Below are positions 2,910-17,026 of a DNA stretch of 64,000 nt, in pieces. The translations under genes were made by a program, and so were the position numbers. The notes below the pieces were generated by a model, which saw only the letters and a list, made by a program, of their open reading frames with translations, had not been told where the DNA came from and ran no database searches. This stretch comes from an uncultured Rhodospirillales bacterium (lineage in GTDB: Bacteria; Pseudomonadota; Alphaproteobacteria; CAZRBL01). Position 1 is the stretch's first letter, and each line of letters starts with the position of its first letter. The stretch spans positions 105,291 through 169,290 of the forward strand of contig CAZRBL010000001.1 in NCBI GenBank assembly GCA_964598335.1, read 5' to 3'.

Positions 2910-3191
2910 ATGTCCAACCCGTTTACCGAACATCCGAACTCGGTCGGGGAGAGTTATTGGGAACATTTTGCTGTCGCTGCCGGCTTCGGCTTGACGATGC
3001 TGCGCGGCGGCCTCGCCTGTCTGGTGCACGCAGTCTTCCCGTTCTGGTGTACGAAGACGGGCAGCAACACTGTTTTTGAGTTGCACGAGCGGATGACACG
3101 CGGCCAGCGCGGCGTTAACCGCGAAGAGGAATTGGCGAGCCGTGCCGCCAAAGCCGATGAGCTGGTCTCGGCGCAGAAGCAGCAGGCCTAG
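2910..3191 (+). CDS. Small conserved hypothetical protein (~94 aa) with one hydrophobic segment
   Basis: ATG at 2910 preceded by AGGAG. Reads MSNPFTEHPNSVGESYWEHFAVAAGFGLTMLRGGLACLVHAVFPFW... It is divergent from the TBDR across an AT-rich regulatory region. Function unknown. Confidence 0.5.
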   Translation: MSNPFTEHPNSVGESYWEHFAVAAGFGLTMLRGGLACLVHAVFPFWCTKTGSNTVFELHERMTRGQRGVNREEELASRAAKADELVSAQKQQA

Positions 3192-8778: not shown

Positions 8779-9891
8779 CTAGTTTCGGGCGATTGTAAGA
8801 CGCCAGGGAAAGCCGGAACCCTTTTGCTGCACATAGCCGGTCCAAAGGGCATCATCGGCAAAGCCGGCTTCGGCCAGCAGATCGGCGGGGTTGAGCGATG
8901 CATAGCTTTCCCAGAACGGCTCATTGTTGAATTGCTGGTCCCAGCTCGATTCAAAGATCTCGAAAGCCGATTTGCCCTCGAAGCTCAGCGGCACATCCTG
9001 ATGCACGGCGATGCCGCCGGGGGCCAGCAGGCGGCGGGTTTCCCGCATCATCGCGGCCGTCGTCTTGCGGCTCATCTCATGCATCGCATTATGCGAGACG
9101 ATAAGGTCGAAGCTGCCATCCTCGAAACCGAGATCGGCGGCGTCGCGCTGATGGAAATGCACCGGAACGCCGAGCGCCTCGGCGCGGGCATGTGCGTAAC
9201 GCAGCATGCTGCCGCCGATATCGACGGCGTGTACCTCGGCGTTCGGAAAGGCATGTGCATAAGGCGTTGACGAGGCGCCTGCGGAACAGCCGATGTCCAG
9301 AATGCGCGTCGGGGTGAAGTCCGGATAGCGTTCGGCCAGGGTGCGGATCACCAGCTCTGCCTTGCTTTCACTAAGGCCGACGCTCTGACCGCGCGAATAG
9401 AGCGAGCCGCCGCTCTCATAAAGCGCGCCGGCCATGAGATCCTCATCGTCTCTGTCGAGCGTATAGCCGCCGGGCTGAAGATGGACGTCGATTTCCTGCA
9501 TCGCGCGCGGCGGGTCGAAATCCGGGTCGAGCTCGAGCGTGCCGCCGGCTTTACCGACAATGTGCTTTGCCTCGGTGCGCATGCGCGGCTCTTCGCGCGT
9601 CGCGGTGTCGAGGATCGACTGCCACATCGATTCCTGGGCGGTGCGGTTCAGCGCGCAGAAAAAGCGGTAACCCTCATCGGCCAGCATTGCGGTGCCGGCC
9701 TCTTTCGGGGTTTCGGGCCGCCGTCCATGCTCGGCGATAAAGGCGGGCTCGGCGCGCTTGTCGAAAATCGTTCGGTTCTGCGGCCGGATTTTCCGGCCCA
9801 GCCGTTTTTTCAGCGACAGAACAAACATCTGGCGTGCATTTTCATCATGCACCGGCTGCGGCAGCATGTCGTGCTGTTCGTTTCTGGCCAT
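8779..9891 (-). CDS. Class I SAM-dependent methyltransferase
   Basis: 370 aa. SAM-binding motif I ([12 protein letters not shown]). Acidic motif II (VHAVDIG). Motif III ([12 protein letters not shown]). Confidence 0.8.
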
Positions 9892-10044
9892 CGGCCCGCT
9901 CCTTCAGATTCTGGTCACGAGCAAGAATATTGCGACGGGGCACGAGCGCCAACCCCCCAACACACAACAAGCTGTGCGCCCGGCAGATGGCCGCAGCTGC
10001 TCGGTGTTCTATATGGAAGGGTGCCGGAGAGGACTGAGAAAGCC

Positions 10045-10443
10045 ATGGAAAAAATCGAGAAAACAGACAGCGAATGGCGCGAGGCGCTGACCGAAGAGCA
10101 ATACTACATTTGCCGCAAGGCGGGCACCGAGCGTCCGTTTACCGGTGAGCTGCTTAATGAAAAGCGCGACGGAATCTTTCATTGCGTTGCCTGCGAGCTG
10201 CCGCTGTTTGAAAGCGGGACCAAATTCGACAGCGGCACCGGCTGGCCCAGCTTTTTTCGACCGATCAGTGATGAGGCCATAGCCGAGCACCGCGATATCG
10301 GCCTCGGCATGATCCGCACGGAAGTCTGCTGCAATCGCTGCGGCAGCCATCTCGGCCATGTCTTCAAGGACGGACCGCCGCCAACGGGCTTACGCTACTG
10401 CATCAATTCGGCGGCGCTGATGTTTGTGCCGGAAAAGCAGTGA
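10045..10443 (+). CDS. msrB: Peptide-methionine (R)-S-oxide reductase MsrB
   Basis: Last 132 codons of track ORF 9481..10443. ATG at 10045. Two CxxC pairs (CVACELP..., [13 protein letters not shown]). Conserved GTGWPSF and HLGHVF motifs. The upstream part of the track ORF is antisense to the methyltransferase gene. Confidence 0.9.
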
Positions 10444-10449
10444 GCGGGC

Positions 10450-10968
10450 TCACTTTCGTCTGAACTGATCCAGCGAGACGACCTCGCCGGTCTTTTTCTC
10501 GCTATCCCCGGATTCATCGTCCGGCGTCGATGCGCCGGCAGCCTCCTCATGAGGCTGTTGCAGCACATCCATATCGCTGTTGCCGGTCATTGGCGGTGCT
10601 GCATCCTCATTATCACCGGCCTGGAACTGCAGGGCGAAATTGACCGACGGGTCGGCGAAGATGCTGATGGCGCCGAAAGGAATGCGCAAACGCTCAGGCA
10701 TGCCGTTAAAGCTCAGTGTCACCTCGAACCGGTCCTCGAACACTTCGAGCCCATAGAACTGGTGCTGCAGCACGATGGTCATCTCGCTGGGATAGCGGTC
10801 GCGCAGATAGTCGGCGATGTCGACGCCCGGATGCCCGGTGCGGAAGGTGATGTAAAAATGATGTTCGCCCGGCAGGCCCTCGCTCGCCGCCTGGCGGATG
10901 GCATGTTGCACCACCCCCCGCAAGGCGGTCTCGACCATCTGGTCATATCGCATTTGATCCCGAGCCAT
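10450..10968 (-). CDS. sspB: ClpXP adaptor SspB (stringent-starvation protein B family)
   Basis: The N-terminal domain aligns by eye with E. coli SspB (GVDIADYL / IVLQHQ / LEVFEDRFEVTLSFNGMPERLRIPFGAISIFA versus GVQVPMEY / IVLNIA / LELANDEVRFNARFGGIPRQVSVPLAAVLAIYA). An acidic linker follows. The C-terminus ends in a ClpX-binding-like tail (VVSLDQFRRK versus LRVVK). Confidence 0.8.
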   Translation of the reverse strand: MARDQMRYDQMVETALRGVVQHAIRQAASEGLPGEHHFYITFRTGHPGVDIADYLRDRYPSEMTIVLQHQFYGLEVFEDRFEVTLSFNGMPERLRIPFGAISIFADPSVNFALQFQAGDNEDAAPPMTGNSDMDVLQQPHEEAAGASTPDDESGDSEKKTGEVVSLDQFRRK

Positions 10969-11040
10969 ATCGGACCCTAACGCGCGGCGGCGCGGGGCTC
11001 AATGCTTGATTGGCGCTCGCGCGCCGGGCCTTGGCCCCTT

Positions 11041-11074
11041 ACCGAGGGGAGGCGGGGCGGAGGTGAGGGGCGGA
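11041..11074. repeat. GC-rich intergenic repeat, half-copy B
   Basis: ggaggcggggcggaggtgaggggcggaccggcc matches the right arm (gcggggcgggggtgaggggcggaccggcc) of the palindromic element at 23521..23613. Confidence 0.5.
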
Positions 11075-11107
11075 CCGGCCAAAACAAAAAAAGGCGCCGC
11101 AGCGTCT

Positions 11108-11144
11108 TTAAAAAATGAGGGGCTTCTGTTGCCCGGTGCCCCTC
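11108..11144 (-). terminator. Rho-independent terminator of ssrA
   Basis: On the minus strand: GAGGGGC-(14 nt loop)-GCCCCTC followed by ATTTTTTAAAG. Confidence 0.65.
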
Positions 11145-11445
11145 GGACCGCGCCTAAGCCATGCAAGCGGCCTAGGAGTTGAATTCGAAGCTACCGAGCT
11201 GCTTAAGCAGCCAGGCGGGCCTCAGCGTAGTTGTCGTTGGCAACTATCAAAACGGCCCGATAACGGTGGTACCATGCCGGGCAAAAACTGCATCTTTCAG
11301 CCCACGTCGATCCTGTTTCGCCCCCACCAAAAGCACCCTGTCGCTGCCCGTCTCAGAATGCTCTTGGTGGAGGCGCCGGGTACTGCCCCCGGGTCCGTAA
11401 AGCCTATTGCATACAGCGTTTATCGCCATAGCCGGGTGCTACCCG
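11112..11445 (-). ncRNA. ssrA: tmRNA (SsrA), circularly permuted two-piece type
   Basis: The minus strand carries the tag reading frame GCC AAC GAC AAC TAC GCT GAG GCC CGC CTG GCT GCT TAA at complement(11203..11241), encoding ANDNYAEARLAA. The coding-piece 5' end GGGGGCGAAACAGGAUCGACG is at complement(~11325). An acceptor piece ending GGCGCCUCCACCA-3' is at complement(11365..) with a T-arm-like CCGGG-GGCAGUA-CCCGG; acceptor-stem G3:U70 is consistent with alanine identity. The CCA-containing piece lies 5' of the GGGG piece, which is the permuted arrangement. Promoter and terminator are identified. The ORFs 11115..11474, 11179..11400 and 11247..11429 in the track are non-coding. Confidence 0.75.
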
Positions 11446-11453
11446 ACAACACC

Positions 11454-11482
11454 AATATATCGCGGAATCGTTAAGGATCAAA
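11454..11482 (-). promoter_or_regulatory. Sigma-70-type promoter for ssrA
   Basis: Minus strand TTGATC-(17 nt)-TATATT. The predicted TSS near 11447 coincides with the inferred start of the tmRNA precursor. Confidence 0.45.
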
Positions 11483-11546
11483 GGACGTTTGAGTTTTGGC
11501 GGTTTCGCGCCGGGCCGGGGCGGGGGTCAGCGGCGGACCGGCGAAC

Positions 11547-12047
11547 TCATTCAGCCGCGCGCTGAAAATGCAGCGCCAGCTGCTGGACGATTTCGTCGCC
11601 GACCGATTCCAGCGCCCGTTCGCGGGCATCCTGGGCGGACACATCCGTCGCCAGCTCGCTGTCGAGGATGTTGAAGCTGGTCGTGGCACGGGCCCGGCCC
11701 GAGGTAATCGGCTGCCCGGCGCTGCGGTTGATCAGGCTGAAGCGGGCCAGGATACGGACTTGAGTTCGGGTCGTCACCGCGTCGGGCTGAAGGCCAAGAT
11801 CGATCAATCTTTCCTCCAATGCGATCCTCAGCACATAGGGAAAGCTGTCCGGTTGTTCGGTCGCGGCAAGGCGTTGCTGCAGATAGGTGCGCAGGATCTG
11901 GCCGTTGCGCTCGGGGATCGTCGCGATGCCTATTTGCGCCAGCTCCTGCGGAACGCCGCTTTGTTCCCCTGACCAGGTGCCATAGACGGGCTGAAAGCCG
12001 CAGGCTGACAGGGTCATCAGGGCCATCAGGGCGAGTGCGGCTTTCAT
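11547..12047 (-). CDS. Lipoprotein, possibly LPS-assembly lipoprotein LptE-like
   Basis: An internal ATG gives MKAALALMALMTLSACGFQPVYG, a lipobox LSAC with Cys at +1. The size and the CGFQP(V/L)Y start resemble alphaproteobacterial LptE. The call is tentative. The first 14 codons of the track ORF look like translated leader. Confidence 0.4.
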   Translation of the reverse strand: MKAALALMALMTLSACGFQPVYGTWSGEQSGVPQELAQIGIATIPERNGQILRTYLQQRLAATEQPDSFPYVLRIALEERLIDLGLQPDAVTTRTQVRILARFSLINRSAGQPITSGRARATTSFNILDSELATDVSAQDARERALESVGDEIVQQLALHFQRAAE

Positions 12048-12182
12048 CGGCCCCGCTCTCGCCTTCGCTGGGTTTTCGCGCTGAGGCACCCCCTCGCTCC
12101 GGCCGTTTGTTCCAGGCGCAAGGGGAAGAGTGCCGCGTAGCGGCGGGGCGTGCGGGGCGAAGCGGCAGCGTGGGTCAGCATG

Positions 12183-15181: not shown

Positions 15182-17026
15182 GTGCGAGCCGTGACTACCC
15201 TCGCGAAGACATCACCGCCGATTCCAGCTTACGATCCTGAGGCCCTGCCGGGACACAGGGTGGAGCTGGCGGCTGACAGGAAAATGCCGCTCGATTGCGG
15301 GATCGACTTCGGCCCGTTCACGGTTGCCTATCAGACCTATGGCACACCGAACGAGGCGCGCAGCAATGTCATCCTGGTCTGCCATGCACTGACCGGCGAT
15401 CAATACGCTGCCGAACGTCACCCGCTGACCGGCAAGCCGGGGTGGTGGCAGGCCATGATCGGTCCGGGCAAGCCGCTCGACACCGACCGTTATTTCATCA
15501 TTTGCCCCAATGTCATCGGCGGCTGCATGGGGTCGACAGGCCCGCGCGACAGCAACCCTGAGACGGGCGAGGTCTATGGCCTCGGCTTTCCGGTGATCAC
15601 GATTCGCGACATGGTGCGGGCGCAGAAGCTTCTGATCGATCATCTGGGTATCGAGAAGCTGTTCTGCGTCATCGGCGGTTCGATGGGCGCGATGCAGGTG
15701 CTGGAATGGGCCGTCAGCTATCCGGACAGCGTCGGCGCGGCCGTTCCGATCGCCGGCTCCTGGCGCCATAGCGCCCAAAACATTGCTTTTCATGAGGTCG
15801 GACGGCAGGCGATCATGGCCGATCCCGACTGGCATGGCGGCGCCTATAATGAGGTCGGTACGCGCCCGAAGCGCGGGCTCGCCGTGGCGCGCATGGCGGC
15901 GCATATCACCTATCTGTCCGAGGCGGCGCTGACCCGCAAATTCGGCCGCAGCCTGCAGGACCGGCCGGACATCACCTATGGCTTCGAGGCCGATTTCCAG
16001 GTTGAAAGCTATCTCCGGCATCAGGGCAGCACTTTCGTCGATCGCTTCGATGCGAACAGCTATCTCTTTATCACCCGGGCGATGGATTATTTCGATCTGG
16101 CGGCGGATCATGACGGCCAGCTATCGCCGGCCTTTGCCGGTACGCCGGTGCGGTTTGCGCTGATTTCGTTTTCCAGCGACTGGCTGTTCCCGACATCTGA
16201 ATCCCGTGCCGTCGTGCATGCGCTGAATATGGCCGGCGCCGAGGTCAGCTTTGTCGAGATCGAGACCGACAAGGGCCATGACAGTTTCCTGCTCGACGAG
16301 CCTGATTTTCATCAGGCAGTGAACGGCTTTCTCGACGGCTGTGCGCGCCAGGCAGGGCTGTTGGAGAGCGACGGCGGCAACGGCCGGGCAGGGCATGAGG
16401 CCAGGCGCGGCGATATCCGGCTCGATCTGCGATTGATCGGTGATCTGATCGAACCGGGGGCGCGCGTTCTCGACATCGGCTGCGGCGATGGCGAGCTGCT
16501 CGATTATCTGGTCAACGGCAAGCAGGTTGATGCGCGCGGGATGGAGCTGAGCCTTGACGGCGTGCGGGCCGCGGTCAGCCGCGGTGTGCCGGCGATTCAG
16601 GGCGATGCCAATACCGATCTCGCCGATTACCGCGCCGGCGCCTTCGATACGGTGGTTTTATCAAAGGCGCTGCAAGCGATGCATGATCCGCGGGCGGTGC
16701 TCGAGAATCTGGTGCGGATCGGCGGCCGGGCGATCGTCTCGATCAGCAATATCGGTTATTGGCGGCGCCGGCTGCATCTGCTGTTCTCGGGCCGAACGCC
16801 GGTGACCGATGAAAGCGAGACGCGGCTTTCCGGCTGGTGGGATACCCGCAATATCCATGACTGCTCGCTGCGCGATTTCACCGAGCTGTGCGATACCATC
16901 GGGGTCGAGGTGGAAAAAACTCTGCTGCTCGGCGGCAAGGGCAAGGTCCGTGAAGCCGTCCGCCCGTCAAGCTGGGACAATATCACCGCCGAGCAGGCCG
17001 TCTTCGTGATCAAGAAGCGGCGATAA
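15182..17026 (+). CDS. metXW: Homoserine O-acetyltransferase MetX fused in-frame to methionine-biosynthesis protein MetW
   Basis: 614 aa single ORF. Residues 1 to ~390 are the MetX alpha/beta-hydrolase (VAYQTYGT, nucleophile elbow GGSMGAM). Residues ~400 to 614 are a MetW methyltransferase-like domain ([12 protein letters not shown]...). The start codon is GTG. Confidence 0.85.

Follow-up and report, generated by a model that had tools for sequence, protein, structure and literature searches.

Transfer-messenger RNA (tmRNA) genes of circularly permuted form, and the two-piece RNA that they produce, have already been described and catalogued across thousands of genomes, with 11,946 unique permuted sequences (PMC11915505). 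The two-piece tmRNA of Caulobacter crescentus is attributed to Keiler, Shapiro and Williams (2000) in citing passages of PMC11915505 and PMC2584231, and the tag of the split tmRNA of Sinorhizobium meliloti was detected by mass spectrometry (PMC10117765). The alphaproteobacterial form of the ClpXP adaptor SspB is also published and structurally solved, and passages of PMC3985003 and PMC8138137 credit it to Lessner 2007. Here we analyze a stretch of 64,000 nucleotides (nt) from an uncultured Rhodospirillales bacterium (GenBank assembly GCA_964598335.1, contig CAZRBL010000001.1, positions 105,291 to 169,290), called the window from here on, and in particular a tmRNA gene (ssrA) and a gene for SspB (sspB) that lie next to each other on its minus strand. 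With a probability of around 0.93, this locus is the ssrA of the genome, circularly permuted as is typical in Alphaproteobacteria, with an alpha-type sspB after it on the same strand. The feature is real, ordinary and already known, and no evidence contradicting the identification of the tmRNA or of SspB was met in the analysis.

The permuted tmRNA gene

A permuted tmRNA with the tag ANDNYAEARLAA was called by ARAGORN at positions 11112-11457 (-), this being the sole RNA gene called in the window, where the same program found no tRNA genes. The Rfam model RF01849 (alpha_tmRNA) matched positions 11114-11486 (-) over its full length (model positions 1-355 of 355), with 278.3 bits (gathering score 50) and an E-value of 5.3e-80, a match far beyond chance. 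The same region, with a G+C content of 58%, was matched by RF04321 (tmRNA_permuted) along positions 1-213 of 213 (143.2 bits, gathering score 47), and no Rfam family besides tmRNA was above threshold in the window. These data bear out an earlier sequence-only reading of this DNA, which had placed a two-piece tmRNA gene on the minus strand, as the region does fold as a tmRNA under the covariance model.

The features of the locus are collected in Table 1, with coordinates taken from the minus-strand sequence and from the Rfam structure lines. As read from the nucleotides, they correspond to a sigma-70-type promoter, a single permuted gene, an intact tRNA-like domain, the pseudoknot PK1, a tag frame and a terminator. 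The permuted order is the one described earlier, with an acceptor piece that ends in CCA at 11367-11365 and the GGGGGCGAAACAGGAUCGACG start of the coding piece located downstream, at 11325. The core of the acceptor piece carries the 5' strands of a long helix formed with the coding piece, and the sequence reads as a 7-bp acceptor stem (GGGGGCG/CGCCUCC) in which G11323 is opposite U11371, thus forming G3:U70, the alanine identity pair. The tag frame and its TAA stop were likewise found as they had been given, both in the ARAGORN call (coding part at 217-255 of the tmRNA gene) and in the sequence itself at 11241-11203 (-), with the codons GCC AAC GAC AAC TAC GCT GAG GCC CGC CTG GCT GCT TAA. No literature match to this exact tag was found.

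For the region preceding the tag frame, 50 distinct tmRNAs of Alphaproteobacteria were aligned over the 46 nt that lead up to their resume codons, one relative (L037) being left out of the alignment. In the H-type knot, 95% of the cells were paired and both sides had changed in 16 cells, a figure reached by none of 500 shuffles, and as its central pair (columns 19-37) 38 sequences had GC and 11 had AU. Even S2 strands of divergent sequence keep their pairing, as detected in L072 (GAGCU/AGCUC) and in L037 (UCCG/CGGA). A nested double hairpin, with GCCCGG/UCGGGC enclosing AUGGU/ACCGU, was also tried and rejected, as it showed no covariation and was broken in 11 sequences in which the knot was compensated. 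Directly before the resume codon lies AUAGUU, and this resume context is conserved in the alphaproteobacterial tmRNA alignment, so that the frame is preceded both by a conserved AUAGUU-GCC and by a pseudoknot supported by covariation, as the earlier reading required.

Regarding the signals for transcription, the two promoter elements proposed before, TTGATC and TATATT, are present, although the spacer between them is of 16 nt and not of 17. The promoter scan found one site against 0.4 expected. The -10 element falls within the UAUAUU of the Rfam alpha_tmRNA consensus, and CTATATT or CTATAAT was detected at the equivalent place in nearly all of 58 related tmRNA genes, at a fixed distance before the leader hairpin. 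The -35 region of these relatives is usually CCTTTC-like instead of TTGACA-like, with TTGnnn found 15-19 nt upstream in only 10 of the 58, and for this reason the -35 call is weak. At the other end of the gene, the stem-loop and T-tract terminator claimed earlier can be read directly in the sequence, and its stem forms in the minimum-free-energy fold. The 14-nt loop contains GGCAACAGAA, a motif conserved in relatives, and its length explains why the terminator scan, limited to loops of 8 nt, missed this terminator. The second, weaker hairpin and the T7-G-T4 tract located beyond it could possibly act as a back-up terminator.

The gene was compared with Caulobacter loci reached through a search with the crystallized fragment of Caulobacter SspB. 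In Caulobacter sp. 1776 (L084) the tmRNA lies at 1724-2062, encodes the tag ANDNFAEEFAVAA and is followed by sspB at 2501, and in two C. vibrioides-type contigs (L085 and L086) the tmRNA ends at 1457 and 1365 and sspB is found at 1636 and 1635, respectively. The gene of the window shares with the two-piece tmRNA of C. crescentus the permuted order, the encoded CCA, G3:U70, PK1 before the resume codon, a tag of the ANDN...AA type, a 3' stem-loop with a GGCAACAGAA-type loop, and sspB downstream on the same strand. By contrast, the tags differ (ANDNYAEARLAA in the window, ANDNFAEEFAVAA in Caulobacter), and the terminator of the window is a clean one with U6, while in the Caulobacter loci no run of at least 5 T is found between the tag stop and sspB. 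When estimated from the position of the GGCAACAGAA motif, the spacer to sspB is 147 nt in the window (141 nt by direct count) and around 105-213 nt in the Caulobacter loci.

The SspB adaptor

The next gene on the strand encodes an SspB homolog with a conserved C-terminal tail, in agreement with the sequence-only reading. The protein matched PF04386 (SspB) with 156.7 bits against a threshold of 27 and an E-value of 6.3e-46, along profile positions 2-156 of 156, and is laid out as a substrate-binding domain (around residues 1-120), an acidic linker and the tail GEVVSLDQFRRK. This tail fits the pattern [VI][VI]xLDxFRKK, which hardly varies at the C-terminus across 80 homologs.

The only matches in the PDB were the Agrobacterium protein AGR_C_3712p (2NYS, E-value 7.7e-41) and the SspB of Caulobacter (2QAS, E-value 1.8e-33, and 2QAZ, E-value 5e-33). 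The alpha-type SspB has reportedly been characterized in Caulobacter, with SspB-alpha said to be the subject of Lessner et al. 2007 and of Chien et al. 2007, and the 2QAZ crystal presumably contains a tag peptide. The protein of the window shares family and subtype with these solved proteins, the match covering the whole binding domain, and the tail VVSLDAFRKK of 2NYS aligns with its VVSLDQFRRK. It differs from them in a linker whose sequence is not conserved, and its closest relatives in the databases are only around 60% identical. In a database of 5.8 billion clusters, the protein (P0001) was a singleton with one exact match, the next-best matches having 61-64% identity across 94% or more of the protein and up to 74% across around two thirds of it. 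Its nearest relatives, at around 60% identity, come from metagenome-assembled genomes, from Azospirillaceae and from Rhodospirillales, which places the source in a lineage near Azospirillaceae or Rhodospirillales that has been poorly sampled.

With the SspB of E. coli and its tag AANDENYALAA, the system of the window shares the Pfam family and the LAA end and, by analogy, it may also share the binding of the adaptor at the N-terminal AAND..Y and the docking of the tail on ClpX. Both SspB tails are short, hydrophobic and basic, although that of E. coli is ALRVVK (...RPALRVVK) and that of the window SLDQFRRK, and the Tyr of the tag is at position 6 in the window and at position 7 in E. coli.

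From these features, a complete route can be proposed. According to the published mechanism for permuted tmRNAs, tRNA-processing enzymes would excise the 39-nt segment (PMC11915505). RNase P would make the GGGGG 5' end, and the two resulting RNAs would be held together by base pairs in the acceptor stem and in the long helix 2. Alanyl-tRNA synthetase would charge the CCA end through G3:U70 and, with SmpB, the complex would enter stalled ribosomes, where translation would resume at the GCC at 11241, in such a way that the nascent chain would gain AANDNYAEARLAA. By homology to the proteins of Caulobacter and E. coli, a dimer of SspB is expected to bind the N-terminal AANDN(Y) part of this tag. 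The tail VVSLDQFRRK would dock on the N-domain of ClpX, as work in E. coli and Caulobacter suggests by analogy, and so tether SspB to it, while ClpX would engage the C-terminal LAA and ClpXP would degrade the tagged protein.

Table 1. Features of the ssrA-sspB locus, in coordinates of the window
Feature	Position	Strand	Details
Promoter (-35 element weak)	11454..11481	-	-35-like TTGATC 11481-11476; 16-nt spacer 11475-11460; -10 TATATT 11459-11454
5' leader hairpin of the precursor, GUCGGGUAGCACCCGGC	11431..11447	-	paired in the Rfam alpha_tmRNA consensus structure; relatives have a hairpin at the equivalent place
Acceptor piece core, begins GGCGAUAAAC	11365..11427	-	Rfam structure lines and sequence
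T arm stem	11392-11388 with 11380-11376	-	Rfam structure lines
Acceptor 3' strand CGCCUCC	11375-11369	-	U70-equivalent at 11371
Discriminator A; encoded CCA	11368; 11367-11365	-	sequence
Intervening segment, 39 nt, predicted to be excised	11326..11364	-	not conserved; inserted in the Rfam alignment after CCA and before GGGGG
Coding piece, around 216 nt	11110..11325	-	helix-2 3' strands, PK1, tag frame, 3' stem-loop
Start of coding piece, acceptor 5' strand GGGGGCG	11325-11319	-	sequence
Pseudoknot PK1	11253..11279	-	S1 CGG(C) 11279-11276 with (A)CCG 11267-11264; S2 UGGU[A]CC 11274-11268 with GGGCCG 11258-11253
Tag reading frame	11203..11241	-	resume codon GCC 11241-11239; 12 codons, ANDNYAEARLAA; stop TAA 11205-11203
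3' stem-loop/intrinsic terminator	11110..11144	-	GAGGGGC 11144-11138; 14-nt loop; GCCCCUC 11123-11117; A; U6 11115-11110
Second, weak hairpin and T7-G-T4 tract	11081..11105	-	tract at 11092-11081; sequence and small hairpin in the fold
ssrA-sspB spacer, 141 nt, GC-rich	10969..11109	-	AGGG 6 nt before ATG, possible ribosome-binding site
sspB, alpha-type ClpXP adaptor, 172 amino acids	10450..10968	-	Pfam PF04386

Gene order, transcription and alternative readings

The ATG of sspB, at 10968, was found 141 nt beyond the U6 tract, which matches the distance of around 140 bp given earlier. The conservation of this arrangement was surveyed in 80 genome loci encoding relatives of the SspB of the window, one per species-level genome; a locus with only 31 nt upstream (L029) was not assessable, leaving 79 as the denominator. 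A permuted tmRNA upstream of sspB on the same strand was detected by ARAGORN in 56 loci, and Rfam added five more that had escaped ARAGORN or were truncated at the edge of the contig or locus (L019, L026, L058, L065 and L080). The arrangement is thus present in 61 of the 79 loci, 52 of them with the tmRNA within around 500 bp, and the taxa surveyed include Bosea, Afipia, Beijerinckia, Denitrobaculum, Aquibaculum, Hwanghaeella, Henriciella, Hyphomonas and Tagaea. As three full-length permuted tmRNAs missed by ARAGORN (L019, L080 and L085) scored 203-282 bits with the Rfam alpha_tmRNA model, ARAGORN alone undercounts this form of the gene. Almost all the tags from ssrA-sspB loci (58 of 59) start with ANDN.

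The order ssrA-sspB is therefore the norm in Alphaproteobacteria and not a novelty, and the adjacency, which Caulobacter and three quarters of the sampled genomes share, is not a discovery but an inherited alphaproteobacterial synteny. The earlier reading had implied that the order was unusual, which does not hold, although it was right in that E. coli is arranged differently, with ssrA by smpB at 2.755 Mb and sspB by sspA at 3.376 Mb, around 620 kb apart. A phrase search, which did not reach the primary SspB-alpha papers, returned no relevant published statement of the adjacency.

Some tags of the survey depart from the common form. Long tags in which the NDN motif appears twice, such as ANDNFAFVAANDNSVVSGEGKIAA, were found in seven loci (L001, L003, L008, L037, L042, L054 and L057), some labelled Micavibrio and the others labelled only Alphaproteobacteria or Rhodospirillales. 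The tmRNA lies 1-2.5 kb upstream of sspB in six of these seven and is adjacent to it in L042, and another four members of the group (L034, L038, L051 and L078) showed a tmRNA-like 3' motif with a T tract right where the 3-kb flank ends. The only tag of the set without NDN is ANQNEPLQAPALAHAA, from L048 (1743-2104), where an SspB homolog is still found around 55 nt downstream.

Several observations weigh against the reading of the locus as the ssrA of the genome followed by an alpha-type sspB. The SspB of the window was only 25% identical to that of E. coli over 72 residues (E-value 0.004), and no NCBIfam model matched it at an E-value of 0.01; set against the strong matches to 2NYS, 2QAS and 2QAZ, this low similarity to the E. 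coli protein is the reason for its assignment to the alpha subtype. A tblastn search with a sequence of E. coli SmpB as the query found no SmpB gene in the window, and SmpB would for this reason be encoded elsewhere. Finally, the promoter scan found no sigma-70-like promoter in the 141-nt spacer, a scan of this consensus type capturing alphaproteobacterial promoters poorly.

This last result bears on the alternative that survives best, according to which ssrA and sspB form one transcription unit, where read-through of the tmRNA 3' stem-loop gives the sspB mRNA and couples the supply of the adaptor to tmRNA synthesis, in such a way that the adjacency would be functional and not merely inherited. 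We regard it as rather unlikely. The strand and order shared by 61 of the 79 assessable loci are consistent with it, as are the spacers of the relatives. These were measured in the 43 loci (42 relatives and the window) with the exact GGCAACAGAA loop motif next to sspB, because a motif search allowing two mismatches gave false positions. In 12 of the 43, the ATG of sspB comes fewer than 60 nt after the tmRNA 3' stem, and a T-rich tail was found in only 14 of the 43. The 12 loci (L061 at 2940-3005, L055, L067, L074, L058, L053, L071, L021, L056, L048, L025 and L077) have their ATG 20-59 nt after the stem-loop, mostly with no U tract, as in L061, where it comes 28 nt after the stem with no such tract. 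Spacers of this size leave little room for a terminator and a promoter, and so co-transcription is suggested in those lineages, where the expression of sspB may depend on the ssrA transcript or on a promoter located within the tmRNA gene.

The idea is weaker for the window itself, where the terminator is of the textbook kind. The clean GC stem with U6, the second T7 tract and the spacer of 141 nt lead us to expect efficient termination, and the lack of a promoter call in the spacer has to be read with the poor performance of the scan in mind. Thus, the ssrA of the window looks independently terminated, and the transcription of its sspB is probably independent for the most part. The broader proposal that in many Alphaproteobacteria, and perhaps leakily in the window, sspB has no promoter of its own and is expressed from the ssrA precursor, its mRNA being released by the processing of the tmRNA 3' end, is equally doubtful in our estimation.

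A much less probable alternative is that the SspB of the window mainly delivers substrates that do not carry the tmRNA tag, the adjacency to ssrA being incidental. The SspB of E. coli also delivers an N-terminal fragment of RseA, and SspB has been reported to scaffold N-RseA besides ssrA-tagged proteins (bioRxiv 10.1101/2020.06.12.148478). Against a role of this kind as the main one, the linkage to ssrA is conserved, the ANDN start of the tag is near-invariant in the surveyed genomes, and the protein is a close homolog of the Caulobacter SspB crystallized as 2QAZ.

It is more improbable still that the tmRNA copy is a relic, or an extra copy borne by an island, and not a working ssrA. Genomic islands often integrate at tmRNA genes, of which partial duplicates also exist (PMC11915505), but here the model was matched over its full length without truncation, and the tag frame, G3:U70, CCA, PK1 and the promoter are all intact. 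The flanks are the conserved housekeeping gene sspB and an LptE-like gene, and no second tmRNA match was found in the 64 kb with ARAGORN or Rfam.

Finally, that the open reading frames (ORFs) listed at 11115-11474 (+), 11179-11400 (+) and 11247-11429 (-) are real protein genes has practically no weight, since their frames are open for 119, 73 and 60 codons but none of the three had a Pfam match, they overlap one another and a structured RNA matching its covariance model at an E-value of 5e-80, and long spurious ORFs are common at such base composition (58% G+C), with many overlapping ORFs in the list, so that the earlier view of these three ORFs as spurious stands.

Flanking genes and implications

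On the other side of sspB, msrB (9481-10443 (+), SelR domain, TIGR00357 with an E-value of 2e-55) converges on it, with the two stop codons 6 nt apart. As the SelR domain spans only residues 203-317, the 320-amino-acid ORF of msrB is over-extended. Just upstream of the ssrA promoter, an ORF of 180 amino acids at 11547-12089 (-) is lipoprotein-like, with a weak match to LptE (29.1 bits, cut-off 23). Further away, at 15182-17026 (+), an ORF of 614 amino acids carries a MetX-type (homoserine O-acetyltransferase) alpha/beta-hydrolase domain in residues 62-371 and a complete MetW domain in residues 413-610 (E-value 5.8e-61), and thus MetX and MetW appear to be fused in one frame.

For the annotation of this genome, the ORFs of the 11.1-11.5 kb region should be dropped and ssrA (as a two-piece tmRNA) and sspB called in this place, a correction that matters only a little; the standard tools ARAGORN and Rfam find the tmRNA at once, and its earlier description as unannotated can only refer to a track limited to ORFs. 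The locus is one more example, fairly divergent given that its nearest SspB relatives are around 60% identical, of a well-described system. The survey puts a usable figure on a pattern that looks known, with ssrA kept directly ahead of sspB in around three quarters of the alphaproteobacterial genomes sampled, and flags, in some lineages, very short spacers without a terminator as a candidate mixed RNA-protein operon. The synthesis of tmRNA is cell-cycle regulated in Caulobacter. If sspB were indeed carried on the ssrA precursor, the amount of the adaptor would be tied directly to the synthesis of tmRNA.

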